The notes under the pieces were generated by a model. It did not search any database. It saw only the letters and a program-made list of their open reading frames with translations, and was not told where the DNA came from. The position numbers and the translations under genes were made by a program. From Candidatus Kapaibacterium sp. (lineage in GTDB: Bacteria > Bacteroidota > Ignavibacteria > OLB7), in the NCBI GenBank assembly GCA_035549015.1, contig DASZRW010000112.1, forward strand, positions 285 to 64,284: DNA of 64,000 nt. Direction: 5' to 3'. This document shows, one piece after another, positions 7,294-53,139 of the stretch; position 1 is the first letter of the stretch, and every line of letters begins with the position of its first letter.

Positions 7294-11217
<3,924 letters not shown>

Positions 11218-23700: not shown

Positions 23701-25173
23701 ATGGGTCACAATCGCAGTGAGAGAACTATCGTGAGAGCTCCCGCCATCGGACATGCCGGGAGAGCGCTCGCCCTGATCATCATGCTCGTGATTCTGATAT
23801 TTCAGGCAGATGCAAGGGAACTGGTTCATTCCTCCGCGCCGCGCGCCACCTTCATCACCATTTCCGACATTCACTTCACGCCGTTCTACGATTCAACGCT
23901 GGCCGCGCGTCTCATCGCCGCCGATTATCAGCACTGGCTCGCGATCTTCCAGTCATCATCGGTGCGAGGGCTTGGGATGTACGGGAAGGAGACCGGATAT
24001 CCGCTCCTGGAATCGACGCTGGCATCCATGCGGCAGTCGGCATCCAATCCCGGTTACGTGATTCTCACCGGCGATCTGCTGGCGCATAATTACCGGCAGA
24101 CGTTCGATCTCTATGCGACGGACAGAAGCGACTCGGCATACGACCGTTTCGTCTACAAGACACTCGGCTTTCTGGTCTCGCGTATTCGTACCTATTTCCC
24201 GGGAACGCCGGTATTCCCGGTGCTCGGCAACAACGATTCCTACAGCGGCAATTATTCCATCGGGCCGCGCTCGCGATTCCTGGCGGACTTCGAGCACCTC
24301 TGGCAGCCGCTTGTTGCGGGGACCGGCACGGCCAAATCGTTCGCGAAGGATTTTCCCATCGGCGGATTCTATTCCGTGCCGGATCCGCTCGTCAGGCACA
24401 GACGGATCATCCTCCTCAACACGATCTTCTTCTCGAAGAAGTACTGCAACAAGTGCGATTCGGGGGGCGCGCTCTGTACGGCGTGCGACACGTCGGCACC
24501 CTATCCGGGCGATATCGAGATGGCATGGCTCACGAAGGAATTGGCCGCCTCCGCGCGCAACGGCGAGCACGTGGTACTGGCATATCACATTCCGCCGGGC
24601 ATCGACGTCTTCGGCTCCGTCGATTCAACCGGAGGGAGCACGACGCCGGTAACTCCGCTCTGGCAGGATCGGTACGACTCCACGTTCCGCGCGTTGATGG
24701 CCGCGCATGCGAACATCATCGATGCCTCCTTCGCGGGACACACACATGTGGATGACTTCCGGCTGATGGCGGACAGAGCGGGCACGGCGTTCGGCTTCAT
24801 CCATATCACGCCCGCGATCAGCCCGGTCTACGACAATAATCCCGGGTACCAGATCTTCGATCTCGATCGCTCCTCCGGAATCATCAGGAACTACGAAACG
24901 CGTTTCGTTGACCTCACGGCCCAGGCGAGCGGGTGGCGGAAGGAGTACGATTTCCAGAGCACCTACGGCTCCGCCCGGTATGATCTCCTCGCACTGGTGA
25001 AGCTGTTCGATGCACTACAGTCCAACCCTGCAATCAGGAATCACTATATCACCTACTATCCGGTGAGCAGTCACTACGGAAATGCCCTCACGGTCCGCAA
25101 CTGGCATGGCTTCTGCTGCGGCATCGAGAATTTCACCATCCCGGATTTTACCGCGTGCTGCTCCCGGCACTGA
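23701..25173 (+). CDS. metallophosphoesterase, acid-sphingomyelinase-like phosphodiesterase family (490 aa)
   Basis: N-terminal membrane anchor/signal RALALIIMLVILIFQADA. Calcineurin-like motifs ISDIHF, VILTGDLLAHN, PVLGNNDS, AYHIPPG and GHTHVDDF. Start is ATG 23701 (Met101 of the listed ORF). Confidence 0.85.
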   Translation: MGHNRSERTIVRAPAIGHAGRALALIIMLVILIFQADARELVHSSAPRATFITISDIHFTPFYDSTLAARLIAADYQHWLAIFQSSSVRGLGMYGKETGYPLLESTLASMRQSASNPGYVILTGDLLAHNYRQTFDLYATDRSDSAYDRFVYKTLGFLVSRIRTYFPGTPVFPVLGNNDSYSGNYSIGPRSRFLADFEHLWQPLVAGTGTAKSFAKDFPIGGFYSVPDPLVRHRRIILLNTIFFSKKYCNKCDSGGALCTACDTSAPYPGDIEMAWLTKELAASARNGEHVVLAYHIPPGIDVFGSVDSTGGSTTPVTPLWQDRYDSTFRALMAAHANIIDASFAGHTHVDDFRLMADRAGTAFGFIHITPAISPVYDNNPGYQIFDLDRSSGIIRNYETRFVDLTAQASGWRKEYDFQSTYGSARYDLLALVKLFDALQSNPAIRNHYITYYPVSSHYGNALTVRNWHGFCCGIENFTIPDFTACCSRH

Positions 25174-25552: not shown

Positions 25553-28500
25553 TTACAGCGTGAAGATCACGTCGTCCAGATTCCGCAGACCGTAGGAGTT
25601 GGTCACCACCACCTTGTACCGATGGTACACCACGGCACCATCCACAAGCTTCGGAAGCGTTCCGGCATTGTACAGCATGGTGGGCGCCGTGGTTGGTGCG
25701 GCCACGAGCTTCCAGTTGCCGTTGCTCTGCATCTTGTAGAGCGCATAGGTGGACTGCACCGACGTAGCATACCAGGTCAGCACCACGTTGCGATACTCCG
25801 TGAGCGCGTTGTTCTGCAGCGGGTCATGGTAGGCATCGTATGTGGCATCGATTGCCGGCGGCACCGGGTTTGCGGAGTCCACCACATTGACCAGCACGAT
25901 CTCCGACGGGAGTGATTCGATCTCCTCGTTGCGCATCTGGCCAAGATGGAGGTAGCTCAACGGGCGCACGCCCGCAAGGCGATAGAAGATCGGCGAGCCG
26001 AACGGCGGATCGATATCGGCGAACAGATCCCGCACAATCCATCCCTCCAACGTCTGCGCCAGCGTTGCCACATCGAACGTGCCGACAAGCGTCATGGTTC
26101 GCGTGCTGGTTGCATCCGCTGCCGTGAGAGCACGATACAGCCGGATGGCAGTGATACCCTCGGCATCGGGATACGGCGTGACGGTGAAGTTCACGGACTG
26201 CTGCAGCCCGAAACCCTGCTGGGCCTCCGCCACGATCACATGACGAATCGCAGGAGCCGCGGATGGGGCTGCGTTCACCAGGCGTACGGGGCCAAGGATA
26301 TCGCTGACGGGACCAACGGCCAGTGTGTTCGAGATCTCGCGGGCACAGTAGAAGAAGATGTTCCGCGATGCTCCGTCCAGCGCGTAGTCCGTGAACCGGA
26401 TTGTTGTGCCGCTGGCCGTACGCCTCACCATCGGATAGGGATTGAAGCCCGGATCCTCCGCGGTGAGCAGTTCACCGTTGGCATCGCGTACCACGGGCTT
26501 CTGCGACGACGTGACGAGCGCATCGTCCACATCCACCAGGCTTGTCAGGATCGGACGCTCGGTAAGCGGCACCATCGCTCCGGCAATCACCTCGCGGATG
26601 TCATCCAGTGCCGAAGGGATCAGCCCCTGCGCCGGATCGCCCGGCAGACGCGACGGCACGAACGCCTTGCGATACGGCGTCGGGTGCGCGGGGTCGTCCG
26701 GGTCGGCCAGGTGCACGGGATCGAACAGCTCCGCGTCGGGATTGTCAGGCACGGGGAACGCGAAGCCGTTGTAGACCTTGAACCGGCGCGCGTTCGGGCC
26801 GGTGGTATCCACCACTCCCGTTACCAGCTCGCGCCACTGGCTGATGTAGGCGTCATCGTGCGCAACACTGTTCAGGTGCGGACGGATAACGTTGTCGATC
26901 GTATCCTGCTTGTAGAGCGCGCGCAGCACTGCCTCCTCGTCGCCCCGGTAGAACACCGCTCCGTACGGCGTCCGGTTTGCAGCCACCGGCATGTCCACGG
27001 AGCAGGATGACTTGCCGTAGAAGTCCGGGCGCGTTGCATAGGCTGGCCCCGAGAGAGCGAGCGGCTTCACCGGATCGGCAACGTTGTGCGCGATCTGCAC
27101 CGCAGCCGGCGTGAGCGACGATGTGTACCCCCGCGGGCTATCCATCGAGTAGGCGGCGATGTAGGTCTGCCGCGTGGGCGCATCGCCGGTCGGCATGATG
27201 TCCGATTCGGGTATGCCGCCGGCAAGCAGATCGATGTAGCCTCGATACGATGGATGGAAGTTCATCGGCACCGTGGCAAAGCCGGTGTGCGGGCCGATGG
27301 TGTCCGAAGGATCGAAGACGTAGATCGTGAACTTCCCCTGGTCCACCAGGAACTTGATTACCTGCACCGCCTTCATGCGTCCGGATGCGGCGGGATCGGG
27401 AACGCGCACCGTACCACGATAGAACTCCACGAACCATGGGTTGTTGGGGTACTGGACGTTGTAGTCAAAGAGCATGATCGTGGGGCAGGTGATCTTGTAC
27501 ACGCCCGGAGGCGCATCGATCGCCGGCGAGCCGGGTGGAACCGTTATCGTATCCACACGCTCGAGTCTGGCGGCCGGCTCGAACAGCCCGCCCACCGTCA
27601 ACGTTCTGCTCTGGCCGTTCTCCACGAGCTGCTCCGTATATACCGGTACCTGCGGATATGGCAAGCGCGTGAAGTCCGCCAGTTGTATGACGCTGCTCGG
27701 CAGAGCCCTCCACCGCGCGGTGTTCGCAAGGTTCTCAACCACCATGAACGTAGTGCCGGCCTTCGGAGGATCGTACGCCTCGGTCTTCTTCACTCCATTC
27801 TCGTCGGTGGTCTCCATCGGCGTCAGGTGGAACCGGGCGTAATTGTTGCCGGCGGCCGTCACCTCAACCACGATGAACCGATGCGTGCTGGTGGCGAAGA
27901 TGCTCCCCACGAACACCTGCTGCGATATCTGGCTCGAGGTCACGATCGGTTCCACGGTGATCGAGCCCTTCGATGGGTCTGCCGTGAGATCCGGATATGC
28001 ATCGGCCTCCACATACACATCGCCATTCCCGGAGATCGACTGCGGGTTCTTCACCACGCCGCGTATCGATACCGGCGCATCGGTACGGAAGAAGAACTGA
28101 ACACGGTCCGCACTCTGGTAGGCGATGTTGTGCACATGATTCCAGTCGAACAGCACGCGCGTCCGCTTGCCGTGGGTTGCGATCTGCGCCTGTTCCGACA
28201 GCGACGTGAGCACCGGTGGAACCTCGCGCTGGATGTACTGCACCGCGAGGTTCGCCGGCGGGAGAAGCGAATTGTACTTCGGGAAACTCGTCGTGATCGT
28301 GTTCGAATACACCCCAATCGCAGAGGCGCGCGAGAACCAGTTGATCCCGAAGATCCCGTACCTGCGAGCGAAGTCGTTCCCCGGCAGGTTCTCGATGCGA
28401 TGCACGAATACCGGGTTACCCGTGTCCGGAATGCCGTGCAGCTCGGGATGCCCGTCCTGATCGGCATACGGAACGTATCCACTCGGCTCGTACTCACCGA

Positions 28501-31500
28501 AGTCGTTCACGGGATATACCTGCCGCCAGTCGCTCGGAGAAGTGCCGTCCGGTTTGGTGATCCGGATGCCGAACTGCATCGGCTTCGTCGCCGTACCATG
28601 ACTGAACTCCGTGGTATCGGCAAAGAAGTCTCCAACGGGAAGGTCGATCGCCACCGTTCCACGATTCACGTTCAGATAGCGTGCATCGGCATAGCGTGTG
28701 TATCCCTGGGAGTCCGTGAAGTCCTCGTGCACCAACGGCTCGATGCTGGCGATCGTCACGGGTGCCGGCAGCCGGACGTCGCTCCGCCCGGTTGGAAGCG
28801 AGAGATAACGATGCGTCATCGCGGTGATGCGTTTCGCCGGGTCAGCCGGTGTCACATACTCGGCCATGTAGATATAGCGCTGTCCGGCGGCGTCGCCGGC
28901 AAGCGGCACATCCGGATCGATCATCCCGAGCCCAAGCATTCGTGCCACGTGGTAGTCCTGTGCGGCCAACAGCAGCATGCGGAGTGCACTGATGTTGATC
29001 GAGCCGCTGTCCGTGGACAACACGGGAGCCTGCGTCAGCCACGCCTCCACCTGAGCGGGATCGACACTCCTCTGCAGGTACGACTCCACCGCCGTGCGTA
29101 TGGACTGCTTTGGATCGCGCTCGAATGCCGGGCGTGAGGGATCGTACGTGGGATCTGCATGACCGTCCGGCAGATAGTGACGGTTGGGAAGCCACCGGTC
29201 CAGGTAGTTCACCACCTTCACCCGTGGGGCCTGGCCCTCCAACGTGTGCCCGTACTTCGGCCATGCTCCGTCCACGTTGAATCGCGTTGTATCCTCCAGG
29301 CGCCTGGCAGCCTCCGTGGTATCCAGTGTCAGCGCATAGTTCCCGATCTTCTTCCAGAGGTACCGGCGATGCGTGGCGGTATAGAAGTCCGCATAGGTTT
29401 CCACCAGCAACGCGCCAGGCGCCCCACCCGAATAGCGGAACCGGAAGTATTGCACGGCCTCGCTCATCACCTTGTGGCGGGTGCCATTCCCCACGAAGCG
29501 CCTGCGCGCGGAGATGAACAGCGGGGCAGCGGCCGCCGAGGGATCCTCGTTGAGCGATATCGCCTCCACACGCGTCGTCATCGCCGCAAGCGACGGCGAC
29601 GTGAGCTCGAACGCAAACATCAGGTTCAGGTCCGTCTCCACCTCCACCGTACCGGTGAAGTTCGCAACGATGTAGGCCACGTCCGCTCCAACGTTCTTCG
29701 GATCGGTCGGCGTGTTGTTCTGGCGCAGCGTCCGGTACGATCCGTCGTCGACAAACCGCAGCGTCAGCGTAACAACGGCCGAGGGGAACAACTGCCTGTC
29801 CACCTGAACGTTCGTATACGTCCAGGTCCAGACACCGCCGTCCTGCGAGACATCTGTGGGACGTTGCTGTGTGGTGGCGCTGAGATCGATCGTGGCCGGG
29901 AAGTACTTCGTTGTATCGGTATCCACGTAGCGCGTGCGATAGATCGCCACGTAATCGTCCGGCTTGTTGTACCCGTACGACGCGAAGTATGGGCTTCCCG
30001 GGCGTGTGTACGGTCCCTTCGGCAGATGACGATTCCCGAGGTCGTTCAGGAACGCCCAGCGCAGGTGCACGCCTCCGGCGCTGCCGTCGCCGCCGTTGTT
30101 GAATCCGTCGGAACCAACAGCCTGCAGGTAAAGGAACTGCGACTGGATGGTGTAGGCCTGCGTATCCTCCTCGCCGCATACATTGCGGCCGACTGCATAG
30201 AGCTTGCTGCGAAGCAGCACGGTTGCCTGGCGCAACTGATCGAGCACCGGGGCGAAGTATGCTACCACCGCGGCATCGGGCGAGCTGCAGCGCAGGCAGT
30301 AGGCGGTGAAGAAGCTGATCGCCACCCGCGCCCGCATGCAGGTTGTAGTGGCGCATGGATCGTCCGCGATCGGCAGGCCAAGCAGCACCGCCTTCGGGAT
30401 CACGAGCGCGTAGAGCGCATCGATCGCCGTACGCAGATCGCTTGGATTCCCCTCCACAAGGTTCACCAGGTCCGTTGCGCCGGCGCGTTCCTGGGCGCTC
30501 ATCCCTCCCACCATCGCACATGCCTTGCAGATGCATTCCAGCAGCTCCAGCCAGTCGTGGCGGAACGCCGTCATGGCCGTTTCCGGCCGCGGCAGGTCGT
30601 TGGCGATCGTGGCTGCGTATGCGGCCGACTGCGCCGCAAGCTGTGCATCCAGATAGTCCACAACCACGCGGGCCTGTGGGGCAAGCTCCTGATACCGTGA
30701 GAATGCCGTGGCCAGCAGGTCCACAACGAACTCCAGCCGGTTGCAGAAGGCGCCGCCGGGAAGCATGGTCTGCGTCAGCCGCAGATTCCGCGCGAGCGAT
30801 GCGATCTCCTGCTGCGTGCGCGTGAAGATGTCCTCCAACGCAATCACCGCCGGCGCACCGGAGGGGGGATCGACGCCGCAGAGCAGATCGGAGTAGCCAA
30901 CGAGACCGTGCAGGTGCGCGCAGATATCAACGGACTCCGCGCAGAACACGACGCCGGCCGCAGCCAGTTGGGCTGTCCACGTGGCATAATCGGCAATGAA
31001 CGTGGCGAGCCCGGAGTTCAGAAGCGTTGCCACGCCGCTCGGCATCGTGCGGCACGGTCCGCATGTCAGATGCAGTGTCCGCAGCACTTCGAAGAGCTTG
31101 TACGCATCGCCGGATGCCAGGCTGGAGGATGGAGCACCGGCGCCGGCTGGAGCGGGCGTGATTGCGTTGAAGAGTGCCGTGATCCGCGAGGAGAACAACG
31201 AGGTGAAGCTCGCCCGCAACGTCGAAGACAACTCGCCGAACCGTAGCGCCGCCACGTACAGGCACTCCAGTCTCCATATCCAGGAGGGGCAGGTGTCGGT
31301 GCAGGTGCCGGTGAACGTGGCGCCGAGCTGCGTGCGCAGACGGTCGTACTCGCCTCGGAGCTGCACGTACTGCGCTTCGAGCTGCGTGCGCTGCGCCGAG
31401 GGAATCGAAAGTCCGTACATGCACGCGAGGCCGAGGAATACCGTGGAGCGCCGAAGCAGCTCGCAGCAGTCCGTGGGGGGCGAGCCAGCGGCGCTCATGG

Positions 31501-34500
31501 GAATGGCGCTCGTATACGGACTCGTGGAGGCGGCCGCCAGCGTCTGATAGATGGCCATGATGTCATCGCAGATCACCGCGTCGAACTGCGTCAACGTTCC
31601 GGGATCGTTCCCCGAAGCCGGCCGGCGCAGCTTGCACAGCTTGCAGAGACAGACGAACAGCGCGAACCAGCGATCGCAGTCCACACAGCTCGCGGCGCAC
31701 GCTACCGGCTTCTCCGCGAGCTGCGGAGCGAGCGTGGCAAGGCTCGCGCAGACACGCGTGATGAAGCAGTCCAGCGACCGACGCACGTATGGGGAGACAC
31801 GGCGGCTGCCGGAGTACACCACCATCGCGAACCCGAACATCACGCGCAGACGCTCGCACAACGACGGGCCGGTGCCCGGAAGCACGCTGGCACCGATCCC
31901 GGTCTCGAGCTGGAGACGGGGCGTAAGCTGTTCGATGCAGGAAAGGCTGGCCTGGAGCTGAATCATCGCCGAGGTGGACCAGATCGAATCCCCCACCGGG
32001 ATATCCACGCAGCAGAGCATGCGGTACATGCGCGGGATCATCGTGAGCTTGTCGCAATCGGCATCAAAGGCCGCGCACGGATCGGAGACGGTGGTCCCCG
32101 CGTTGCAGCAGCTGTCGCTCATCAGACTCCCGGTGGCGCAGCTGATGCTGCCGTCGCCGCCGAAGAACATGTTCGTCGCATAGAGGTTGTGCACCTCGGC
32201 GCGAAGGCAGTGGCGTCCCGGACCGAGATAGAGGGCGATGTCGAACGTCTCGTTGTTGACCATGATCTGCGGCGCCACGGAGTGCACCAGCGTTCCGTCA
32301 ACGTAGATGTCTGCGTAGTCGTCCGCGAAGTACGTGAACGTGATGCGCACGTCGCTGGCGCGGCAGAGACAGAAGCAGCGCTCGAACATCGTTATGCCGA
32401 TGTGGCTGTCGGACGCGCTGGCGTTCAGGGAAATCCAATGCGAGCTCCCGATCACCGGTCGCGATGTACCGCTGGTCACCGTCACCGTAGCCTGCGCAGG
32501 ATTCTTCACCTGGTCATCCACCGTGGTCATCACCCACGGCGCCGTGCCGGTAGCGAGCGTCAACTGCGGTATCGTGCAGCTCGTGCCGCAGAACGGAAGG
32601 CCGTCGTACACATCCTGCACCTGATCCATCTGGGCCTGCAGGTAGGAAACAGTGCCGGAGTCCATGCTGTCGCAGCAGGCGCAGTGTGTTGCGAACCAGT
32701 CGAGCAGGCTTCGGTGAATGTAGGCCCAGCGGTCGATCCCCTGTGCCATGCCGGCAAGCGCCGGATCCGTGGTCACGGTGGTATAGGTCCCTTCCACCAA
32801 CGTTCCCACACCCGTGTTGATGGCGTTCACCGTCTCGGCATAGGTGGGATTCGTCACGTCCGTGTAATAGCGATCGTGATGGCTCACGATGCAGTCCAGC
32901 ACGACGATCCAGTCCTCGCAGAGCGTGTTGACGTTGGAGCAGAGCTCCGGATGCGCATTGTTGAAGGCCGCGTAGGCGTCTGCGAACGCATCCATGAGCG
33001 CATTGAGCGCTGCAAGAAGAATGGGATCGATGCTGCCATGCTCGCAGAGCGAACGGAGGCGTGAGAGAATGGCGGAGAGCTTGGCGCAGAGCATCGCAAA
33101 CGATGGAGTCGTGGCCGGCGGTGCGTAGAGGTTCGAGCCATCGTTGAGCAACCAGTCCAGCTGATCGATGATCGCCCCGAGATCGTCCACGAAGTCATCG
33201 ATCACATCCTGCGGCAGAATCGTCCGCTGGCCGCAATACTTCTTCAGGCAGCGAAGCTTCGGCAGCCAGTTGTCGCACCATCCTGAGGGAATGGAGGTGC
33301 TCGTGCTGCACAGGTTCGGATAGGCCGCCTGGAGCGCATCGACTGCGCTCTGCAACTGCTGCAGCAGGGTCTTCAGGGTGATCAACAGAATCGGATCGAC
33401 GCCGTTTGCGCAGTAGGTGGTGATGTCGCTCTGGATGGTGGAGACCTTCAGGCAGAACAACGCGATGTCATCCAGTTCCGCGGGATCGCTCCGCCCTGGA
33501 ACCGAGTGGTAGATGGCGTCGACGGCAGCGCCCAGCTTGTTGAGCACGGTGGTGCGCAGGTCGTCGGTAAGAATGGCCTTCTCCGAGCAGATGCGCGAGA
33601 GGCAGCCGAGGAGCGAGTTCCACGTGCTGCAATCGGTCATCGGAACCGTGTCCGCACAGATGTCGCCGTAGGTGGCCTTGACTCCCGTCATCGACGACTC
33701 CAACCCCACGAGCAGGTTGTCGAGCTGCGTACGGCGGTTGTGCGACCACGGGAAGAGCGCCTTTGTGCAGAGGAAGGTGAAGTATCCGTCCAAAGTCTGC
33801 ACCATCTGGCAGAGCTGGCTGATATCATGATTCAACTGCCCCACGGGCGGCCGCATATTCAGGAACGTATACGCCGAGGCGAGCTGCGCGTTCAGTGCCG
33901 TGTAGAGTGCGTTCTGCAGCGAGCCGGGGAGCGTCGCCCACTTGTCGCAGAGCTTCTTCAGGCAGTCCAGCAGATCGAGCCAGCGCTTGCAGTAATCCTT
34001 CTCCGGCGGCCGGCAGAGCGTAAGGCTCTCACCTTCCATCACATCGCTCAGCAGTTGCCGCTTGTCGTACAGCCGCGTATACCAGGGTTCGATCGTGGCG
34101 GCCCACGGCGGCAGCGTCAGACGGCTTGCGCCGCACACACGACACCACCAGGCCCAGAAGCTGACGATGTAGCTCAACCGGTCGCAGTCGCTCGAGGGCG
34201 CCGGCGAGATCCAGCCCGGCATTCCCTCGCCTACGGCAATTCCCTGGATCTGCGGGAAGAGGCTGTTCACATCGGCTGCGATGTTGCCGTCGTAGTAGGT
34301 GGTGACGTCCGAGGGAAGCGACGGGCGCCGCGCGCAGAACCGGCAGAAACAATCCAGCAGATCGCGCCAGCGCTTGCAGAGGTCCATGATCTGCGGATCG
34401 ATCACGAGATAGCTCACCGCCACCACGTTCTCGAACGCCTCCTCGTACGGCGAGGTGAAGTCCTCGATAGTATAGCGCTGCGCCCATGTCAACGTGCTCA

Positions 34501-35140: not shown

Positions 35141-35361
35141 GTCGTTCTGTTGGGTTGCTGCACGTTGATGTGGTCGTACTTCGTACCGCCGGAAAAGCCG
35201 GCGGCATCGCGGCGTCCGAAGCGCACGGATGGTTCGCCAATGTGGCCGATGCCGAATGCTGCAGTGTTACGTGATGCCGGCCGAGTGGTTGATTACACGA
35301 GGTCTCGGAGCTGACCGGCACGGTGGCGCGCCGATGCCCCGGCGCGCCACCCACGGGTTGG

Positions 35362-43773: not shown

Positions 43774-43895
43774 CCTCGTGGCGGCCGGACCGGCACTTCG
43801 GGTCCGGCCGCCGGGAAATCGGATCCGAGCGTTCCTGTCTATCGTCGCTGCAAGGCCGGCAGGCAGGCCATTGCCGCATGGGGTTGCCGGGAACT

Positions 43896-46800
43896 CTAGA
43901 TCGCGTCCGCGATGACCTTGAGGATCTCGAGAACTTTTAATACGAGAGCACTTGTTTTGGATACATCGAGATCCTCCCCTGCCCCCTGAAGCATGGCAAC
44001 GTGCAAATGCCCGGTCCGGAGCGTCGGATTATCCCTGGTGCGCATCAATGCCACTCGGTAGAAGATCTCATTGGAATAGTAGTTCCCGCCGGAACCGGCA
44101 ATCGACATGATATTACCGGTGATGAGGTTGGGAGTCTTCAACCCCGTGACTTCATTCTCAACCAGCACACGATTGGTTCGGAGACGCTTTGTGGGGTCAT
44201 TAAAGTCCCACTTTACCGCGGCTTGCGGCTTCTGGTCGAAATCCACGTATTCGAAGGTCTGATTGAAATACAACCCCTGGACGATGGGCTGTCCTCCGCT
44301 CTGCGGGAACAGAGCATCATACGGCAGCGTCGTCTCGTAGAATTCCTTTCCGGCGGGATCGGGGGGAAACGCTTCATCCCTGACATTGTTGTTGTCCAAG
44401 ACGATGTGGGATCGATCTGTTCTGCCGCGGCACGGGAACCGATCGATCCAGTACTCACCAGGCCTTCCCTGACTTATCGTCACGATTGCATCCACATGAT
44501 GGTCGTCATCGACAGCCTGTATGTACGGTTCGAAGAAATTCTCGACCACCATGTTATTGAAATCATCAGCGCGAACCGGGAATATCGCCCCACGAATATC
44601 GAGCCGTTTTCCTCCCGGCGTGGTATAATTACGATTCATGAGGTTCAACACGGCTACGCCGGATGGATTGCTCTGCCGGATGTTCGAATATCCATGTATT
44701 GGCGTCAGGAAAAACGGATCGAATCCGGATATCAGGATGCGCTTGGCAGTTGTACTTCGTCCGACCGGCCATGCTGTACTCTGCGGCGAGAACCCGCGCG
44801 AACACCCCTCGAGGAAACTCAACAGGGCATCGATGTTTTTCGGACCGATATCCTTCAAGGCGGCACTCATCGCCAATCGCGCCCAGTAGAGCTGCCTGTC
44901 ATCGTACGTTGTATCCGCATTCCCTCGGACCGTTTCAAGGAGATCATAGGCTCGCTGCTTCACCGCATCGCGCATGTCATTGAAGGATGCCCCGGATGTT
45001 TCAAGCCCCTGGAGCGCCGTCGAGAACTGAGCGATTTTACTCTTGATGGCCGGCGTCAGAATATCGTTCTGCGGGATGGTCTCACTGACGTAGACATTCT
45101 CCTCGATTGAGCAGCCGGCATGCGGCTGCGGCGTCTGAGGCTCGACGGTTGCAAACGCCTGCGAGGTGAACAGCAGGCCATCGACGCTGTAGACGTAAAT
45201 ATCGCTGCCGGAGGCAGGAAAGACCGTCAACTGCAGGTGGCGCCCGGTAACGGCCGTATCAATTCCCGTCCCCCAGCCTCGCACACCAAGCCGATATTTC
45301 TGGCAACCTTCTCCGATAGCCCCAACGGGATCGAGAACGATATATCGGGCATGATGCGGACTGAATCCGGCAAGGGCGGCAAGTGCATCGTGCTGAGCCT
45401 GCGTAAGGCCCAGTGCAAGAATGTTCTTGCGTGACAACGAAGGTGTGGACGGAATGTCCACCAGCTGAAACGTCTTTACGGCCGTCCCGTCCGTGATCTC
45501 CTGTTCCACCAACAACAGATGCCCGAGCTGCTGCACCAGAACCTGCAGGAAACTCTTCGGCCCGCTCGTACTGTTTACCGAACCGCCCGGTAGCTGAGCT
45601 ATCTGCGGTGGTGTCATGCCGATCGCCGGCACGTAGTCGGTGGCGATCGCGAAGTGTACCACGTTCGCCGCTCCCGATTCGAACGCAATCCCTCGCTCGC
45701 TCACCGTCGCAACTTCCACTCCAGCCACCGCACCGGCTCCGACAAACGTTCGATCGCCCATCGAATTCCACGTTACGGCATTCGATGTTCCTGCACCCGA
45801 GGCCGGTATTGCCCACTGCGACGTTGCAGAGAGCGGCCCGAACACGAAGTTGGTGTACTCCCCAACAGATGGAAGCGGCACCGAGTCCGGAGAGAGCGGG
45901 AGGAAGATGGGCGTATCTGATTGCCTGAAATAGTGGATCCGAACCAGCCCGCCAATATTGATGCGGTTCCCCGGCGTGGCCGCCTGCCGGTTGGGAACCG
46001 CGAGCGCCACCGGCTGCGTCCATTCCACATTTGCTCCCGTGCCAAGCATGTTTTCATCGAGGATCCGGCCAACAACTGCGCGGGATGCAATGACCGCGCC
46101 ATCCACGTGCATCAGCGGCTTGTGGTTGTCTTCAATCCGGAGCTTGAGATAGAACGCATTCATCGCCTCCGCTGTGGTTGCCGTCACGGTTGTTGCGATA
46201 ATCGGCCAGCCACCCGAGCCATAGACCGACTGGGCCATCGTGGCGCCGGGTGCAAGGCCGAACTGAAGATTGTTCCGTTCGGCGCCGGTTACATCGTGCC
46301 CATAGTTGCCGTAGTAGTCGTACGCGTAGCCCGCCTCGTTGCGAATGTCGATGTAGAGCGTATCGCACGTGTGGAAGCGCGAAAGCAGGTCCGTGTAGAG
46401 ATACTCCTCCTTCTTCGGCGGAAATGGAATCGCATGCATATACACGCCTGCATAGTAATGCATGGCATAGTATGTGGCAGGATCGATATAGCGGTGGATC
46501 TCCTCGCGCCTGAACTGGAGTTCCAACGGATCAGTCACCTTTGAAAGATCGATCTCGTACACCGGCTGCCGCACGTAGTCCAGCGTGAGATCGGAGGCGT
46601 CGTTGTCCAGAACGATCTCGAAGCCGATGCGATTGGCATCGAAGTGCCCGAGAAGCATACCGCGATCCGCCACCGCAAGCTGGAATCCCGATGTGGGCGT
46701 CACCGATGAATCCACATGGAAGAACAGACTGTCCAGCGTGGTGGTTCCCGCCTGACTGGGATCCCAGCCGAGCACCTTCGCAAGAACGGGGTTGCTGGGG

Positions 46801-49800
46801 TTGATGTGAAGCGCCGCCGCCATGGCAGCATCAGCGGTATATATTGCCTGGATGAACTGCGTAGCTCCTGCCGAGGGGACGAGATTCGTTTCCGTAGCGC
46901 CGAGGAAGTCGGATTTGCGAAGGCCACGATAGACGAAGTACTTCACCGTGAACGATCCCATCGCCGTCTGCTCGATCGGCCTCAGCACCAGGTTGACGTG
47001 ATCGTTGTCCACCTTCTGAATGATCACGGTTCCACGAGTAGCGGCATAGGCCTCGACATCCGAGGATGTGCTGCTGACGAAGGAACTGGTAACGCGGAAC
47101 TTCGTGAGGCCCTTCGGGCCGAATGCATCATCGGGCACCTGATTCCTGACGCTCGCCATGTTGGCAAACTCGTGGAGCTTCGAGAGCGGCTTCTGGCTGC
47201 GAAGCTGGGTCTCCGACGGCACTCCCTCGAGCGCAGCCACCGAGACGGTATGCACCTTCTCGACACGCAGGCTGGCACCGGATCCGATACGCGCGGTAAT
47301 CGCAATCGTACTGCCGTTCTGCGCATTGGATAGTGTAAGGTTTCCGAGGAACGTTGCGGAGTTCGTTGAACCGGCCGCGGGCGAACTCGTTATCGTGGCC
47401 CATGTCACTGCCTGCGTGAAGCACCATACTCCCGCATAGTGATATGTGGTGCTTTCGGTGGTCCCGTCCGCCGCGGTGCGGACAAAATCAATGGAGACAT
47501 CGGGCGAACTGAAGGTTTTTACATCGACGGCTGTGATGGTGAAGGAAGTGGTAACCACTGTGCCGATTGCATCCACCTGGACCGCATCCGGCAGAACCTC
47601 GCCGCTGTTTCCGTTGAGGCCGATGTCCGCAAAGTTCAGTTTGCGATAGGTGATATTGTTGTTGTGCCCGGCGTCGGCACCGTTCATGGCACCGTCGTGC
47701 GGGCTTACATCCACCAGCAGGTACAGATCGCCGGCTGTCGTAAATCCCGACGTTGGCGGTGCCGGCCACGAGATGTTCGCCAGGTAGGTATTGCTGGCCG
47801 TAGGATCGCCTGTTGGTGCAATGACGCCGGCGGGGATTTTCGTCTCTCCCAGCAGATAGGAGCCATGGCCGCCGGTGCTGTACAATCGATTGATATCCGT
47901 GCTGAGTCCGGTGACGGAATCCACCTTGTCGTACGGAAAATCCGTGGGGAACTGGAACGCCGGATTGGCGCCGTCGGCCAGGTGAGCAATGAAGAACCGG
48001 ACAACCGCCGGCAGATTGTACAGCCCGGTTGGATCCGTATCGTTCGCTCCCATGTACACACCGCGATTGGTAATTCGTGCGCAAATCCACTTGGGATTGT
48101 CGAACACCGGAACCTGATATGGGCCCGGCTGGGTGTAGGGAACGGTGTTTGCAGCAACATCCGTTGTTGGATCGGCAATGCGCAGCCACAGATCGGGGCT
48201 GTCGATCGTATTCGATGGAGACGTTCCCGTATCGCTGAGGTTATCCCGGATCATCAGGTCGCGCAGGTCATTGCTGAAGTCGAGCGCCATCCCCACCGCA
48301 CGGTCGGCATTGATACGGCCATAGCCGTAGAAGTGATTGAAGTCCGGAATCCGTCCCCCCTTCACCGGCGTTGTCGCCGGATGCGTTCCCTTCAACCCGC
48401 GATCCACGATCATCCGCGTAGCGCTCTCGATGGAGAGGATGTACCGAATCTCCGCGTTCGTTCCGGTGTTGATCTGTATCGCCTGTCCCGCAACGAAGCT
48501 GAGCGTGGAAACAACATCGATGGTAGCACCGGAAACGGCTGTGATCGTTGTCCACCCGCATTCCACGGTGGAGTTCGCCGCGTGACTGTGCGCCAGCGCA
48601 CGATCCAGCCGTACGACATTGGCCCCAACGATCGCCTTGACAATTGCGCGTTCGGGAGTATGCGCGGAATCGATTCGAAGGGCATGCCCGACTGTGTACT
48701 GCGAGGCATCCGCGACATGAATTTCCGTATCCCCGACGCCGAGGGCGTCGACGATCACGTCGTTGCTGACACTCTCGAGAACCAACAACGTACTTCCACC
48801 AACCACCTCGATCACCGGATTATTGTTGCGATCGAACCATTTCCCGGCGCCGGGAGCGGAACTGTTTTCCGGCTGCCCTGTTCCGGTGTTCAGGAGATCG
48901 ATCTTGTCTGCCGACCGGCGAAGAATATCACGCGCCTCCCAGAAGGTAAGCCGTGAGGTATTGGTCTGCGGATCGATCTGTGCCGACAGCACCAGAGCGG
49001 CAACGCCGGCTGCCAGCGGGCAGGACATCGAGGTGCCTCCGTAGCCATTGGAGTACGATGGTGTGCCGCCAACCACCGTGGATCCTATCCCATGGGTGAA
49101 CTGCAGATGGTCGTTGATACTGATCTGGGTGGGGGAGGTAACGTTGGAATCGATGAGTTCTCCATCGGCACCATCCGCGGTCGCCGCAAATGCTCCGTTC
49201 TTTCCATCGACGGAATGGACATTCGTTTTTCCTGCCGCGTCGATCATCAATCCCTGCCCCTTCCAGAATCCCGCCGTGCACTCCACCGTGATCGAGCCAT
49301 CGCCGTGATTACCGATTGCCGTAAGCGTTGTAGCCAGTGTTGCGGACCCCTTCGGTCCCCCCAGGAAATAGATGTGCGTCGGCGAGAGGAAGCTGCTGCT
49401 GAAGACCGCATCGATTGCCGCCGTCAGCGTGAGCTGGTTGCCGGATCCATTGGCCGCGAGCTGACGGATTTTGCATGTGGACTGCGCAGGATCACCAACC
49501 AGAATCCATTGATCCTTGAAGAAGCCATCGCTCGAACCCACATGAAGCACCGTGTCCGTTGCAACGGTATCCTGCGAGAGATTGGTCATCGACTTCGAAA
49601 GTGCACGCACCCGTACTCCGCACCCCAGCGCCGCCCCAACCGCCTCGTTCAATTCGATCCGGCGCCCCGAGAATACCGTCTTCACCGTATGCAGAGCATT
49701 GGGCCCTGGATCGCCGATCATGATCGTTTGATCGGGAACGAATCCGGTTGCGTGTTCCAGTCCGATAATGGTGTCGGTACTGAGTGTGGCCACCCATATC

Positions 49801-51701
49801 GTGGTATCGACATATCCGGCATCGGCCGCCATTATCCCTTCCTGCACGCAGGCCGTGGTAATGCCTCGCCAGTAGCTGAGCGGAGTATTCCTCTTTGGAC
49901 TTCCATACGATCCGTTATCGCAGGGAGCACAGATCTCGAGTCCCTGCCGGGCGTCGGCAATGGAGGAATAACTGGCTGATGTCGACAACCGCTCAACCAG
50001 GCTTCCATCGTGGTCCACACTCTCCACATTGAGTGAGGCTCCTCCCACCCCCACCACTTCATCCTCGAAGCAGATTCGCTGCTCGTCCCGCACGAGGTGC
50101 GAGCTTGCATTTCGGTCTCCCACGGCAAAGAGAACAAGCCCGCCGCGACCGGCACGCCCGTAGCGGGCCACGATCTGCAACGCCCGCTGCGTCCCGTCTG
50201 TGACCGTATACCCCAGCGCGTCCCATTGGTAGCTGTTAGTACAGATATCCGCGGACGGCACGTTGGAGAGCGAGGAGAGGGCCGGCGGGAGGTCGCTGTA
50301 GGCACGTCCGGATGGGAACGAAGCCCAGAGGGTGGTGCTCCACGTGAACGAGTAGCCGAACATCCACTGAAAAGTCTCCGCCTTCGAATTCTGGCTTTCC
50401 GCGCGCAGCACAACAAGCGCGCGGGAATTTCCGGCTACGCCGGCCGTTCCCTGCCCGTCGTTGGTGGACGCAGCGATCAGCCCCAACGCCTGCGTGCCAT
50501 GCTGGCGGTAAATCTCGTCGCTACCGGAATTACCGGGCCACGGCGAAACATGGTGATCCGGATAGAAGCGGGTGAAGTCATAGTAGTATGCGATGCGCGG
50601 GCTTCCTCCGGTAACGTTCCCAAGCAACGCCGGATGCCGGGGAACAGTCAGCCCCGAATCGATGTCCACTTCGGACTCGGTTCCGAAATCGACTGCAGCA
50701 ACGCAGATGTGCTCGCTGCCGAACGTGATATCGCCGGCACTTCCCAACGAGACGCCTGCCGCTGTCCTCAACCGCTGCCACGCCTTCGCCACCTGCATGA
50801 CGCGAAGATGCCACTGGTCCGGATAGAGCGTATCGGGATTGGTCAACGAGAGATCGCTGACCGGCGCGAACAACGGGAGGTCGCGCGTGGAACTCACTCC
50901 CTGTTCCGCGCGCTCCACCAGGCCGGAGTCCACAAGCATGCGGCAGAGCGCAAGTGCCGTGGTATCGGGCACCACGCGAACCAGGACGTGGCCCGGATTG
51001 GAGGAAGGCCGTGCGATGAGCGGAAGCCCATGCTGCTGCAGAAGAATGTCAACCGCATCGGCGTTCAGGTCCGCGCGGAACCAGAGCATGAGCTGGTCGC
51101 CGAGATACGACACCCCGTGCGTATCGTGCTCCACCACCAATGCCGCCGATGCGATCGGCTCCTCCGCACGCAGTCGCTGGAGGACTGCCGGGAGTTCATC
51201 ACCTGAAACGGTGGCGGAGGTCCGCCCAAGCACCAGCGGTCGCAACCGGGTTTCGGAGTCCATGTCGAGTTCGATGCCGACGGAGGCAGCCGCAGCAGCC
51301 AGTTCCGCCTGGGTTGCCTCGGGAGCCGGCATCACCACGACTTCGGGCTTCGCCGCCAGGTGCACCGGCCTGCGCATGGTACCGGCGTACACGTAAAAAT
51401 CGCCCGGCACGCCCAGGTGAACATATTCGTCGGAAGCACCGGCGCCGATACGAATCGTCCGCTGCTCGGATTCGAATCCACCGCACTCCACGCTCATACG
51501 GTAGACGCCGGGCGCAATACCTTCGAAGATCCAGCTTCCGGCAATCCGTTCCGCCGTATCCGGCAATGGACCCGACACGGTCTGCTGAGATGAATCGCTG
51601 CTCTCGTAAACGCGTTGCAACGCGACGGCGGCATCGGTGAGCGGCGTAAATCCACCGTCGCAAATATGTACGCTCAGCTTGGCGGTGCTCAAGGGTGTCA
51701 T
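43896..51701 (-). CDS. giant leaderless multidomain protease (2601 aa): N-terminal carboxypeptidase-regulatory-like domain, subtilisin-like S8 peptidase domain with large insertions, long beta-rich middle, C-terminal pyroglutamyl-peptidase (C15)-like domain
   Basis: CarbopepD_reg-like segment GSWIFEGIAPGVYRMSVECGGFESEQRTIRI. S8 motifs DQWHLRVMQVAKAW, ...AAVDFG..., HGTQALGLIAASTNDGQGTAGVAGNSRAL (His box), GTSMSCPLAAGVAALVLSA (Ser box). C15-like segment KRILISGFDPF...NPSG...GRPGEYWIDRFPCRG...SGGNYYSNEIFY...TGHLHVAM. Confidence 0.85.
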   Translation of the reverse strand: MTPLSTAKLSVHICDGGFTPLTDAAVALQRVYESSDSSQQTVSGPLPDTAERIAGSWIFEGIAPGVYRMSVECGGFESEQRTIRIGAGASDEYVHLGVPGDFYVYAGTMRRPVHLAAKPEVVVMPAPEATQAELAAAAASVGIELDMDSETRLRPLVLGRTSATVSGDELPAVLQRLRAEEPIASAALVVEHDTHGVSYLGDQLMLWFRADLNADAVDILLQQHGLPLIARPSSNPGHVLVRVVPDTTALALCRMLVDSGLVERAEQGVSSTRDLPLFAPVSDLSLTNPDTLYPDQWHLRVMQVAKAWQRLRTAAGVSLGSAGDITFGSEHICVAAVDFGTESEVDIDSGLTVPRHPALLGNVTGGSPRIAYYYDFTRFYPDHHVSPWPGNSGSDEIYRQHGTQALGLIAASTNDGQGTAGVAGNSRALVVLRAESQNSKAETFQWMFGYSFTWSTTLWASFPSGRAYSDLPPALSSLSNVPSADICTNSYQWDALGYTVTDGTQRALQIVARYGRAGRGGLVLFAVGDRNASSHLVRDEQRICFEDEVVGVGGASLNVESVDHDGSLVERLSTSASYSSIADARQGLEICAPCDNGSYGSPKRNTPLSYWRGITTACVQEGIMAADAGYVDTTIWVATLSTDTIIGLEHATGFVPDQTIMIGDPGPNALHTVKTVFSGRRIELNEAVGAALGCGVRVRALSKSMTNLSQDTVATDTVLHVGSSDGFFKDQWILVGDPAQSTCKIRQLAANGSGNQLTLTAAIDAVFSSSFLSPTHIYFLGGPKGSATLATTLTAIGNHGDGSITVECTAGFWKGQGLMIDAAGKTNVHSVDGKNGAFAATADGADGELIDSNVTSPTQISINDHLQFTHGIGSTVVGGTPSYSNGYGGTSMSCPLAAGVAALVLSAQIDPQTNTSRLTFWEARDILRRSADKIDLLNTGTGQPENSSAPGAGKWFDRNNNPVIEVVGGSTLLVLESVSNDVIVDALGVGDTEIHVADASQYTVGHALRIDSAHTPERAIVKAIVGANVVRLDRALAHSHAANSTVECGWTTITAVSGATIDVVSTLSFVAGQAIQINTGTNAEIRYILSIESATRMIVDRGLKGTHPATTPVKGGRIPDFNHFYGYGRINADRAVGMALDFSNDLRDLMIRDNLSDTGTSPSNTIDSPDLWLRIADPTTDVAANTVPYTQPGPYQVPVFDNPKWICARITNRGVYMGANDTDPTGLYNLPAVVRFFIAHLADGANPAFQFPTDFPYDKVDSVTGLSTDINRLYSTGGHGSYLLGETKIPAGVIAPTGDPTASNTYLANISWPAPPTSGFTTAGDLYLLVDVSPHDGAMNGADAGHNNNITYRKLNFADIGLNGNSGEVLPDAVQVDAIGTVVTTSFTITAVDVKTFSSPDVSIDFVRTAADGTTESTTYHYAGVWCFTQAVTWATITSSPAAGSTNSATFLGNLTLSNAQNGSTIAITARIGSGASLRVEKVHTVSVAALEGVPSETQLRSQKPLSKLHEFANMASVRNQVPDDAFGPKGLTKFRVTSSFVSSTSSDVEAYAATRGTVIIQKVDNDHVNLVLRPIEQTAMGSFTVKYFVYRGLRKSDFLGATETNLVPSAGATQFIQAIYTADAAMAAALHINPSNPVLAKVLGWDPSQAGTTTLDSLFFHVDSSVTPTSGFQLAVADRGMLLGHFDANRIGFEIVLDNDASDLTLDYVRQPVYEIDLSKVTDPLELQFRREEIHRYIDPATYYAMHYYAGVYMHAIPFPPKKEEYLYTDLLSRFHTCDTLYIDIRNEAGYAYDYYGNYGHDVTGAERNNLQFGLAPGATMAQSVYGSGGWPIIATTVTATTAEAMNAFYLKLRIEDNHKPLMHVDGAVIASRAVVGRILDENMLGTGANVEWTQPVALAVPNRQAATPGNRINIGGLVRIHYFRQSDTPIFLPLSPDSVPLPSVGEYTNFVFGPLSATSQWAIPASGAGTSNAVTWNSMGDRTFVGAGAVAGVEVATVSERGIAFESGAANVVHFAIATDYVPAIGMTPPQIAQLPGGSVNSTSGPKSFLQVLVQQLGHLLLVEQEITDGTAVKTFQLVDIPSTPSLSRKNILALGLTQAQHDALAALAGFSPHHARYIVLDPVGAIGEGCQKYRLGVRGWGTGIDTAVTGRHLQLTVFPASGSDIYVYSVDGLLFTSQAFATVEPQTPQPHAGCSIEENVYVSETIPQNDILTPAIKSKIAQFSTALQGLETSGASFNDMRDAVKQRAYDLLETVRGNADTTYDDRQLYWARLAMSAALKDIGPKNIDALLSFLEGCSRGFSPQSTAWPVGRSTTAKRILISGFDPFFLTPIHGYSNIRQSNPSGVAVLNLMNRNYTTPGGKRLDIRGAIFPVRADDFNNMVVENFFEPYIQAVDDDHHVDAIVTISQGRPGEYWIDRFPCRGRTDRSHIVLDNNNVRDEAFPPDPAGKEFYETTLPYDALFPQSGGQPIVQGLYFNQTFEYVDFDQKPQAAVKWDFNDPTKRLRTNRVLVENEVTGLKTPNLITGNIMSIAGSGGNYYSNEIFYRVALMRTRDNPTLRTGHLHVAMLQGAGEDLDVSKTSALVLKVLEILKVIADAI

Positions 51702-52061
51702 GGTTCGAAATGGTTGTCGTAGTGGTATCCGCTCACGGATATGGGAGAACCGCCGTGTGCATCAGTCGCCAACGGAGACATTCTTCACGGCAGAGATGGC
51801 AATGGACGCACTGCATGCCGCCATTGCGCATCTGTTCAACGTCGCTGATCAAACAGGCGCTATGGATGCGCCCGAATTATTTCGACCCGGGGTGTGCGGT
51901 GGGTACGGTGGCCGATCGATTCGGAATGGCAGTGCCGGGTTGCGTGCACGATGCCATCGTGGTATCTGCGTATGCGCCATGCTCTCATGGCACAACATGA
52001 TCATCGCATTTCGGGAACTGCGCCGCCGGCCATCATGCCGGAAGGGAGAGCAACCATCGGC

Positions 52062-52679
52062 TCAGAAGCGCGGTGTAACGTCCTCGAAAATCTCCAGCGA
52101 GATTGTTTCAACGATTCCGGCATCGGTAAGGATACGCGCCTTGTCCACGATCCCCTCTCCGATATCCTTACCGAACGAGACACCGTACCGGCGTGGATTA
52201 TGTTCATCCACTTCGAAGCCGGCAGGTGTCAGCATCCGCACTGCAGATCTGCACGCGTCGGGCGTCACGGACGATTTGAACACCACGCTGAACGATGTCG
52301 CGAATATCCCGATATCCCGACCGCGGGAGATCCGAACGATCGGACCATAGTGGTAATCCGACTGTGTACGCAGGGCCAGGAGCTCCGGTGCATGCAGGCG
52401 ATCGAACGGTTTTCCGTCGCGTCGCCGCACGATACGCATGGAGGTTGCCGCATCGCCCGAAAGGTATTTGCTGCCAACATCTTCCAGGCCCAGGCTGTCG
52501 AGCAGGCGCCGAAGGCGAACCGCACCGCTCCCCGCCGGAGACATATTGGTGGCCAACAGATATGGGAAGGAACGATATTCCCGCATCGATGTGTTATCCG
52601 GATATTCCGCGCGAATTCCCGATTCCACGGAGAAGAAACAACCGCTCATCGCCAATGCTGCCGTCATGATCAGGAGCAT
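52062..52679 (-). CDS. hypothetical lipoprotein (206 aa) immediately upstream of, and co-oriented with, the giant-gene cluster
   Basis: Lipoprotein signal MLLIMTAALAMSGC starts at ATG 52679 (Met29 of the listed ORF). A 360-nt gap separates it from the first giant gene. Confidence 0.55.
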   Translation of the reverse strand: MLLIMTAALAMSGCFFSVESGIRAEYPDNTSMREYRSFPYLLATNMSPAGSGAVRLRRLLDSLGLEDVGSKYLSGDAATSMRIVRRRDGKPFDRLHAPELLALRTQSDYHYGPIVRISRGRDIGIFATSFSVVFKSSVTPDACRSAVRMLTPAGFEVDEHNPRRYGVSFGKDIGEGIVDKARILTDAGIVETISLEIFEDVTPRF

Positions 52680-53139
52680 CGGGAGAGCCTGACGACACAC
52701 CAGAATGTGCACGGCATCACTCATCACCCGGCCTGTTGCGTTATGCAGAAAATGCACGACCATCGTGCTCCCTGCGGAGCGCCAACATACGCCGGAAGGC
52801 GGGGAGTATCAATACGGCCGGTGAAGTCTACCGAACGCGACATTCCACTGCGGAGAATGACTTCGGAGCAATCCTACGAAGCGGATTGCGCAGTTCGTTC
52901 CTGAAATAACAGCGTGCAACGCGCACGTGCAGTAACCCCAAACCATGTGAGAGGAAGTGGCTCGTTGCGAGATTGACATCCGGGGCAATGCGGTGGTTGT
53001 TTTCGACAGGGACAAAATTAGCGGCGGCCGTCGCCGAATGCAATAGCAGGTATCACGTTCGCGAAAATATTTTTCACAGACCGTGTTCCCCATGCACTCC
53101 GGACACCATCACGACTTCGAGGACCACCATCTGTACACA

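Follow-up and report, generated by a model that had tools for sequence, protein, structure and literature searches.

Do three giant genes that lie side by side in a soil bacterium form a single system, and what would such a system do? This question is raised by a 64,000-nucleotide (nt) stretch of a Candidatus Kapaibacterium sp. genome, hereafter the window, in which gene A, at 43896-51701 and encoding 2601 amino acids (aa), gene B (35362-43773, 2803 aa) and gene C (25553-35140, 3195 aa) are arranged head to tail on the (−) strand. An earlier interpretation made from the letters alone (the sequence-only reading) had described them as a protease followed by two cargo-like proteins, possibly a non-classically exported toxin or adhesin. 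We found that the trio recurs as a module across bacteria, and that A, B and C work together in this way is much better supported than any claim about their function. As to function, we tentatively favor, at somewhat less than even confidence, a view of A, B and C as three subunits of a Sec-independent effector-delivery complex that acts on other cells and resembles Tc toxins in function without being homologous to them. Our comparisons suggest that the trio is a new gene system, whose function we infer.

All three open reading frames (ORFs) are free of stops, amounting to ~26 kb of reading frame, and the A-B and B-C gaps measure 122 and 221 nt, in keeping with the three intact ORFs and 120-220-nt gaps of the sequence-only reading. 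The true start of B is probably M25 (position 43701), because this is where the copy in the public protein collection begins (P0005, 2779 aa) and because it is the first invariant column in the alignment with the paralogue B' described below; starting there widens the A-B gap to 194 nt. The source is a soil metagenome, from which the genome was assembled in 153 contigs, a setting in which giant ORFs could be assembly chimeras or decaying pseudogenes and the operon only apparent. This explanation is effectively refuted. Two runs, which may derive from the source samples, each supply a run-level contig (41.4 and 32.6 kb) that covers window positions 33000-52900, or 19.9 kb of the locus, with zero differences and flat depth; since independent contigs span the locus, the trio is not chimeric. 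A third run of the soil study yielded identical short contigs of the locus, and a fourth held a diverged strain in pieces, with scattered substitutions (2-4% in the listed contigs). The unbroken reading frame also speaks against chimerism or decay, as do full-length homologues that are collinear across phyla. Scans for promoters and terminators around the cluster ends performed no better than on shuffled sequence.

The genome itself contains a second trio. A tblastn search against it revealed A', B' and C' in the same order on contig C102 at 1527-27686 (loci L001 and L002), encoding 2658, 2810 and ~3150 aa, respectively, with A' 30% identical to A over 1832 aa and B' and C' 39% and 37% identical to B and C over their full lengths. 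The upstream neighbors of this second trio differ from those in the window, and comprise a 285-aa CarboxypepD_reg-like protein and a 1188-aa Ig-repeat protein with a type IX secretion system (T9SS) tail. In the close relative SZAS-92 (~92% nucleotide identity) the end of contig C112, to which the window belongs, comes after the C102 trio, and the two trios of our genome therefore probably lie in tandem, ~15 kb apart. SZAS-92 is without ~39 kb that includes the window trio (window ~25186-64355, C112 25470-64639), having 1.5 kb instead, and at a site unoccupied in our genome it possesses a different trio. Other occupants of the ~39-kb segment are a lipoprotein ORF, a 570-aa ORF without a family, an MmgE/PrpD protein, a Crp-type regulator and a PAS histidine kinase. 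SZAS-92 also has a trio of a third type (L005), in which A is replaced by a first gene of ~940 aa with a TIG domain at its end; this trio sits in ~26 kb lacking at the same site here (contig C75 ~71205-72050). First genes of this TIG type were also found in L008 and L020. We rejected these as relatives of the central domain of A (A-mid, see below), to which phmmer detected no similarity.

Beyond this genome we found seven related loci in five other metagenome-assembled genomes (MAGs), and in four of these loci A, B and C are all present. An A homologue upstream of B together with a C homologue downstream was found in an Alphaproteobacteria MAG (two loci) and in SZAS-92; the Ulvibacterium locus has an upstream match to the central domain of A only; the second SZAS-92 locus and one Kapaibacteriota MAG carry the TIG-type first gene in place of A; and in a second Kapaibacteriota MAG the contig ends inside B. 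The same A-B-C order recurs in records from Acidobacteriota, Rhodospirillum, Chryseobacterium and Mucilaginibacter, where the flanks are unrelated. Syntenic A homologues stand upstream of B in L003, L004, L006, L011, L019 and L021, and every related locus examined has C downstream of B. Cultured carriers include Mucilaginibacter, Chryseobacterium and Sphingobacterium for B, and Kordia (K. algicida OT-1), Flavobacterium and Microscilla for the C family. Both B and C were detected in Mucilaginibacter sp. KACC 22773 (CP117883), Chryseobacterium daecheongense (CP115858) and Sphingobacterium multivorum.

A census that took one genome for each of 36,145 genera, in which carriers were split into bands of likeness and genes within 10 kb were counted as neighbors, gave the same picture. 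The B domain has ~45 real carriers, mostly Bacteroidia, and C was its neighbor in 21 of 33 and 9 of 12 carriers in the two upper bands (control, 0) and in 0 of 75 in the lowest band, which holds distant kin. A-mid has 51 carriers, with B nearby in 21/39 and 6/9 (control, 0). In relatives and census alike the three genes are co-localized and conserved, not scattered, as their grouping in the sequence-only reading had implied. From these sequence comparisons, we conclude that the trio is a conserved module in about 50 bacterial genera, mainly Bacteroidota. Its distribution is uneven at close range. Six of the seven other species in the window's genus have one to five copies, whose identity to this B never exceeds 49% over the compared domain. 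Only one of the seven other genera in the family carries the module, and it is absent from all 20 genomes taken from other families of the class. Such turnover in copy number and sequence is typical of conflict genes. Conservation of the module, its architecture, its variability and its copy-number turnover are thus directly shown by these comparisons.

The small lipoprotein gene that the sequence-only reading had placed at the head of the cluster fares differently. This 233-aa ORF (52062-52763) does end 360 nt upstream of A, and from an internal start at 52679 it begins M-L-L-I-M-T-A-A-L-A-M-S-G-C, which by eye is a lipoprotein-like signal. We found no relative of it in the genome, at the second trio locus or at any related locus examined, and therefore rejected it as a component or co-occurring partner of the trio.

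What kind of proteins does the module encode? Gene A carries the subtilase that the sequence-only reading had recognized. The peptidase S8 domain (48897-50834, (−) strand, aa ~290-935) matches Pfam PF00082 in two stretches (3.8e-9; 36.7 bits against a cut-off of 21.8) and mirolase in the PDB (8ehe, 2.3e-6). Its triad, D338, H401 and S891, stands in the usual motifs and order, and the N531 motif was also located; between N531 and S891 the domain is interrupted by an insert of ~350 aa composed of small, repeated beta modules. The part of A that is kept in every type of locus is not the subtilase. It is A-mid (45912-47189, (−) strand, aa ~1505-1930, ~420 aa), a conserved adaptor that is predicted to bind the N-terminus of B. 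An exhaustive phmmer search returned 980 cluster representatives of A-mid at E ≤ 1e-3, which place it either inside subtilase giants of 2400-3000 aa or at the extreme N-terminus of proteins of 400-1450 aa. Many systems have just A-mid plus a C-terminal hydrolase, without a subtilase, and on sequence grounds we regard the subtilase as an optional N-terminal extension of A-mid proteins.

The last ~280 aa of A (43899-44750, (−) strand, aa ~2318-2601) were correctly described by the sequence-only reading as C15-like. A profile of seven A C-termini matches structures of pyroglutamyl peptidase I (MEROPS C15; 3lac, 1aug and others) at E 2e-13, which establishes homology of fold. The catalytic set differs from that of the peptidase, with D2420, S2543 and H2567 replacing Glu81-Cys144-His168, so any activity would be expected to be of the serine type. 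Among 52 stand-alone A-mid relatives that we examined, where the set is mostly Asp/Glu-Ser-His, Ser occupies the Cys position in 33 and His is kept in 32, while 34 have Asp and 11 have Glu as the acid. Because the Ser, His and acid positions are kept among these relatives, the alignments indicate that the C-terminus of A is a conserved serine variant of the C15 fold and not the product of random decay. In the paralogue A' on C102 both the Ser and the His are lost. A 178-aa gene between A and B in L011 was considered as a split-off C15 domain and rejected, being unrelated to the C-terminus of A.

The C-termini of the stand-alone A-mid proteins are C15-like in ~33 of the 52. Other A relatives have lipase-like alpha/beta hydrolases of the chlorophyllase/PAF-AH type, or an M23 peptidase, at the C15 position. 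From these swapped C-termini, A would therefore be an adaptor with an exchangeable C-terminal hydrolase, extended here by a subtilase. A trait of polymorphic toxins, one conserved domain followed in different proteins by different enzymes, is accordingly present, as A-mid precedes C15-like, alpha/beta-hydrolase or M23 domains. Among the effectors that bacteria use against one another, lipases and wall hydrolases of the M23 type are common. The assignment of roles in the sequence-only reading, a protease with two cargo proteins, was probably the wrong way round, since it is A that bears the exchangeable enzyme and the subtilase is optional; it is more likely that B and C are scaffold, binding or membrane parts than cargo.

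Gene B is conserved at its ends and variable between them. We found 175 homologues, every one annotated as hypothetical. The N-module (39718-43701, (−) strand, aa 25-1352) is conserved and consists of a small beta domain, a helical bundle and ~45 long antiparallel strands, and the C-module (35434-36822, (−) strand, aa 2318-2780) is a second conserved block in nearly all homologues. The middle (36994-39576, (−) strand, aa ~1400-2260) holds ~6 Cys-helical repeat units here; in most homologues it is absent or replaced, varying in length and content, and in four it consists of Laminin_G_3 lectin domains. An AlphaFold 2 (AF2) model of B residues 25-1200, made with 91 sequences, reached a predicted local distance difference test score (pLDDT) of 80.7. 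Foldseek against the PDB matched the model to LptD, ApoB100, SlpA and ushers at template-modeling (TM) scores of 0.1-0.2, and a wide VIA-align comparison to porins, TonB-dependent receptors, Tom40 and SprA at Z 9-12. VIA-align on the Foldseek matches gave OccK/OprD porins at Z 13.4 with a root-mean-square deviation (rmsd) of 10.5 Å, and in a comparison against BFVD tail-fibre and chorein-N proteins appeared at TM ~0.1.

The B model thus resembles outer-membrane beta-barrels such as OprD/OccK, LptD and SprA in that an up-and-down meander at residues 640-983 aligns to 16-18-strand porins (Z 12-13), and the alignment to SprA of the T9SS has Z 9.4 and an rmsd of 4.7 Å. B differs from such barrels in having neither a signal peptide nor sequence similarity, in the ~10 Å rmsd to porins, and in carrying the meander inside a multidomain protein of 2800 aa. 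We describe the predicted sheet as a porin-like meander in topology only. One family provides a sequence link: DUF6603 (Pfam PF20248), which is uncharacterized, covers part of the meander of the B homologue P0040 at 28.9 bits against a cut-off of 27. It is a precomputed match in several B homologues, and is without a Pfam match in the window's own B. The ESM Atlas placed B in an unnamed cluster and with DUF6603 at 12%, both weak leads.

Gene C is variable at one end and conserved at the other. Its N-terminal array (30191-34753, (−) strand, aa ~130-1650) comprises ~10 Cys-helical units in two runs around a beta domain of ~160 aa (32081-32560, (−) strand, aa 861-1020). This beta domain has no Pfam match, and tblastn found paralogues of it on contigs C14, C96, C125 (three copies) and C26 (E 2e-13 to 5e-6). 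The core (25556-30190, (−) strand, aa 1651-3195) is a string of beta-sandwich, carbohydrate-binding-module (CBM)-like and fn3-like domains, and many of the 165 C homologues begin at this core, within 10-30 residues of the N-terminus, and have little else. In other homologues the array is replaced by Big_1/Invasin_D3 or BspA repeats (precomputed Pfam matches), and others again are annotated in their source records as VWA- or PKD-domain proteins. In an AF2 model made with 13 sequences (pLDDT 66.5), the first 1200 residues of the core form successive beta-sandwiches with short helical inserts. Foldseek matched this model at low TM to S-layer proteins, with an archaeal one as the top match, to complement MG and to cytokine-receptor arrays; VIA returned weak CBM-like (jelly-roll), small-barrel and fn3-like matches at Z ≤ 6.6, and the ESM Atlas gave fn3 hints as weak leads. 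Since the B and C models each exceed 1100 residues and were folded as multidomain stretches, poor matches are not proof of new folds.

The sequence-only reading had called B and C paralogous through a Cys-helical repeat. The repeats, with units of ~120-125 aa, are real, and the similarity of B to C is confined to them (tblastn E 7e-7 to 5e-9); paralogy of the whole proteins did not hold, and on this evidence B and C are two different conserved families whose common part is a lineage-specific repeat insert. A cysteine profile showed that cysteines are restricted to the repeat regions, a hint of disulfides that would fit an oxidizing, extracellular setting. The cores of B and C have no sequence match in Pfam, NCBIfam, PHROGs or PADLOC apart from the borderline DUF6603 link, and neither the B N-module nor the C core matches PDB sequences in single-sequence or profile searches. 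The sequence and structure searches thus matched the giants to no described family over their length, as the sequence-only reading had anticipated.

If A-mid is an adaptor, what does it hold? We modeled A-mid (10-row alignment) in complex with the N-terminal 261 residues of B (25-285, 40-row alignment). Three runs gave an ipSAE of 0.63 against 0.38 for the best control, where the mark for this score is reached by 58 of 80 solved complexes and by 2 of 110 mismatched pairs. At least 72% of contacts are common to the runs, partner pLDDT is at least 81, and the interface takes in B residues 28-37, the extreme N-terminus, and 61-89. Binding of A-mid to the B N-terminus is therefore supported by modeling.

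Together, these observations suggest a way in which an effector-delivery complex could work. A would be the enzyme subunit, with A-mid docking on the extreme N-terminus of B and the C-terminal hydrolase serving as an exchangeable payload, here a pyroglutamyl-peptidase fold with an Asp-Ser-His set; the subtilase fused in front of A in this sub-family would perhaps provide maturation or a second activity. B would be the scaffold, whose porin-like meander may engage or breach a membrane, and C a long beta-sandwich protein. The hypervariable modules of B and C would set target specificity, through Cys-rich helical repeats in this lineage and through lectin, invasin, BspA, VWA or PKD domains elsewhere, and release may follow a non-classical route such as lysis or vesicles. 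Laminin_G_3, Big_1, Invasin_D3, BspA, VWA and PKD are domain types typical of extracellular recognition. Extracellular location, membrane activity and attack rather than adhesion are what we infer from such features. The most specific version of this proposal, a self-contained machine that delivers enzymes into or onto other cells, with a beta-barrel or sheet of B breaching the membrane, inserts of C and B choosing the target and A-mid loading the hydrolases, and hence a new class of toxin complex or a secretion-independent weapon, we consider rather unlikely in its entirety.

The absence of export signals can be read in another way. By eye, none of the N-termini of A, B and C resembles a signal peptide, which upholds what the sequence-only reading had said of the trio, and homologues of B and of the C core start directly at conserved domains. 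Pfam detects no T9SS C-terminal sorting domain (Por_Secre_tail) in any of the three, and no sortase or other anchoring signal was seen. Export signals are consistently missing from A, B, C and their homologues, and several copies, fast evolution and variation between strains are typical of loci in defence islands too. Both points would suit an intracellular system, be it a large protease complex in the cytoplasm or a module for anti-phage defence or abortive infection that senses invaders through its variable domains. We judge this improbable. PADLOC models match none of A, B, C or the lipoprotein, Pfam and NCBIfam identify no ATPase, nuclease, NTPase or sensor family in the window trio, and lectin, invasin, BspA, VWA and PKD modules as well as Cys-rich repeats would be unusual in the cytoplasm.

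The same missing signals bear on a giant adhesion structure at the cell surface, perhaps S-layer-like, in which B and C would form a fibre or sheet with variable binding tips, A would be a mere maturation protease and nothing would be delivered. Such a structure is unlikely, though not greatly so. The C core does resemble strings of Ig, fn3 and MG domains and finds an archaeal S-layer protein as its top Foldseek match, the variable modules are adhesin-type domains, and the window locus has no immunity gene. What it leaves awkward is that A, B and C are without a signal peptide, T9SS C-terminal domain, sortase signal or other anchor in a genome that uses T9SS tails on other proteins, and that an interchangeable hydrolase attached to A-mid, lipase-like, M23 or C15-like, is hard to explain as a maturation factor.

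The enzymes of A, an S8 protease plus hydrolase domains, could instead serve nutrition. An extracellular complex that arrays a giant protease or hydrolase on carbohydrate- or particle-binding scaffolds and degrades polymers or prey debris in soil would account for them, for the hints of CBM-like jelly-rolls from the C core, for the lectin domains of B homologues, and for the soil metagenome source. Nevertheless, we hold it to be very improbable: Bacteroidota normally equip their degradative enzymes with Sec, lipoprotein or T9SS signals; hypervariability and a patchy, multi-copy spread within one genus fit conflict better than metabolism; and no SusC/D-type or transporter genes are linked to the trio among the scanned window ORFs or at the related loci.

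How does a delivery complex acting on other cells compare with systems already known? Like the Tc (ABC) toxins of Photorhabdus, Xenorhabdus and Yersinia (TcA, TcB and TcC), the trio consists of three very large proteins from adjacent genes without Sec signals, one with an exchangeable C-terminal enzyme, another with variable domains that in Tc toxins bind receptors, and one part presumed to be membrane-active, and its distribution is patchy and multi-copy. Unlike them, it has no sequence or profile similarity to Tc components: VRP1, TcA, TcA_TcB_BD, SpvB, TcdB and RHS/YD are absent from A, B and C (Pfam and NCBIfam, E ≤ 0.1). Rhs, teneurin and YenTc chains compare to the B 25-1200 model at a Foldseek probability of only 0.1-0.2 and a TM of 0.05, and the predicted meander of the trio is closer to porins than to an RHS cocoon; no cocoon or autoproteolytic aspartyl site was identified in the trio. 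In our comparison, the enzyme subunit is the largest protein of the trio and the smallest of the Tc complex. The lack of RHS, RTX, VgrG, PAAR or sheath/tube families in A, B and C, remarked on by the sequence-only reading, was borne out by Pfam and NCBIfam.

Polymorphic toxins offer a second comparison. They too place interchangeable C-terminal hydrolases behind a conserved N-terminal domain, for which A-mid would stand in the trio, and passages of the survey by Zhang et al. (2012, PMC3482391) record both pyroglutamyl-peptidase-family domains in polymorphic and PVC-delivered toxins (PVC, Photorhabdus virulence cassette) and subtilisin processing proteases in polymorphic toxins. The giant partners B and C do not feature in those passages of the survey. 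Small genes directly follow the A-type gene at several related loci (L007, L010, L011 and L018), in a manner reminiscent of polymorphic toxins; the window differs in having no immunity gene downstream of A, and the known trafficking domains and secretion partners (type V, VI and VII secretion systems and PVC) are not present with the trio. By sequence, therefore, the trio shows none of the family hallmarks we looked for that would make it kin to Tc or polymorphic toxins, in contrast to the trait of interchangeable C-termini, which it shares. At the Mucilaginibacter locus (L010, CP117883) two proteins are encoded upstream of B within 6033-9836: one of 1097 aa has sub-threshold matches to deaminase toxins at its C-terminus (E 0.02), and the 163-aa protein that follows has a SUKH/SMI1 match of 20.3 bits, below the cut-off and the sole family match among the small genes at these loci. 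These two may be a toxin-immunity pair inside a related module.

Several points weigh against a complex that delivers enzymes to other cells. The deaminase and SUKH matches at the Mucilaginibacter locus lie below Pfam cut-offs and are hints only, and the trio has no recognized toxin domain except those of peptidase type. The extracellular-type domains are seen in homologues, and not in the window's own proteins with their repeats. Fold matches are weak (rmsd ~10 Å for porins, Z ≤ 6.6 for the C core), the B meander could be a soluble sheet, and the score of the A-mid/B complex is model confidence, not a measurement. There is no immunity-like gene between A and B, the 122-194-nt gap offering no plausible ORF, and no lysis cassette, secretion gene or contractile-tail gene was found among the scanned ORFs of the window. 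Of the non-classically exported toxin or adhesin proposed by the sequence-only reading, then, the undescribed conserved module stands, and a toxin- or adhesin-like role without Sec is the best reading only.

Elsewhere in the window, a metallophosphoesterase gene (23401-25173) is convergent with the trio, and a gene at 18983-22555 ((−) strand) encodes a polymorphic-toxin-like protein of 1190 aa with an eCIS_core domain (PF13699, formerly DUF4157; 1.2e-27) and a C-terminal nuclease of the Colicin-DNase/WHH type. The sequence-only reading had identified this toxin gene correctly; we saw nothing that ties it to the trio. The syntenic stretch of SZAS-92 has no DNA match to the gene, and ~5.8 kb there are without a match. 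Sheath, tube, baseplate and AAA+ ATPase genes of extracellular contractile injection systems (eCIS/PVC) are absent from the larger scanned ORFs of the window and from the related loci, the rest of the genome not having been searched for them. Two ORFs of 892 aa (14223-16901, (+) strand) and 809 aa (14250-16679, (−) strand) overlap on opposite strands, neither with a Pfam match. A 1354-aa protein at 7294-11358 ((−) strand) carries Sortilin-Vps10/BNR repeats (5.9e-34) and a sub-threshold LolA-like match (27.2 bits against a cut-off of 30), and appears unrelated to the trio.

Keyword literature searches on giant proteins and genes in Bacteroidota yielded no description of such a module, a full-text search for DUF6603 gave no paper, and a search for PA0049 returned nothing relevant. 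If our reading of the trio is true, soil and aquatic Bacteroidota would possess a new kind of weapon or contact apparatus made of several proteins, which has relatives in Acidobacteriota and Proteobacteria and draws on two families of giant proteins without assigned function or structure. Tc toxins, contractile injection systems and polymorphic toxins would then be joined by a fourth case in which exchangeable targeting is combined with exchangeable enzymes. A-mid, with ~1000 protein clusters, the predicted docking site at the B N-terminus, the serine variant of the C15 fold and the cultured carriers in which genetics is possible provide handles for experiments. Even if the module serves adhesion and not attack, it accounts for very large hypothetical genes that recur in these genomes.

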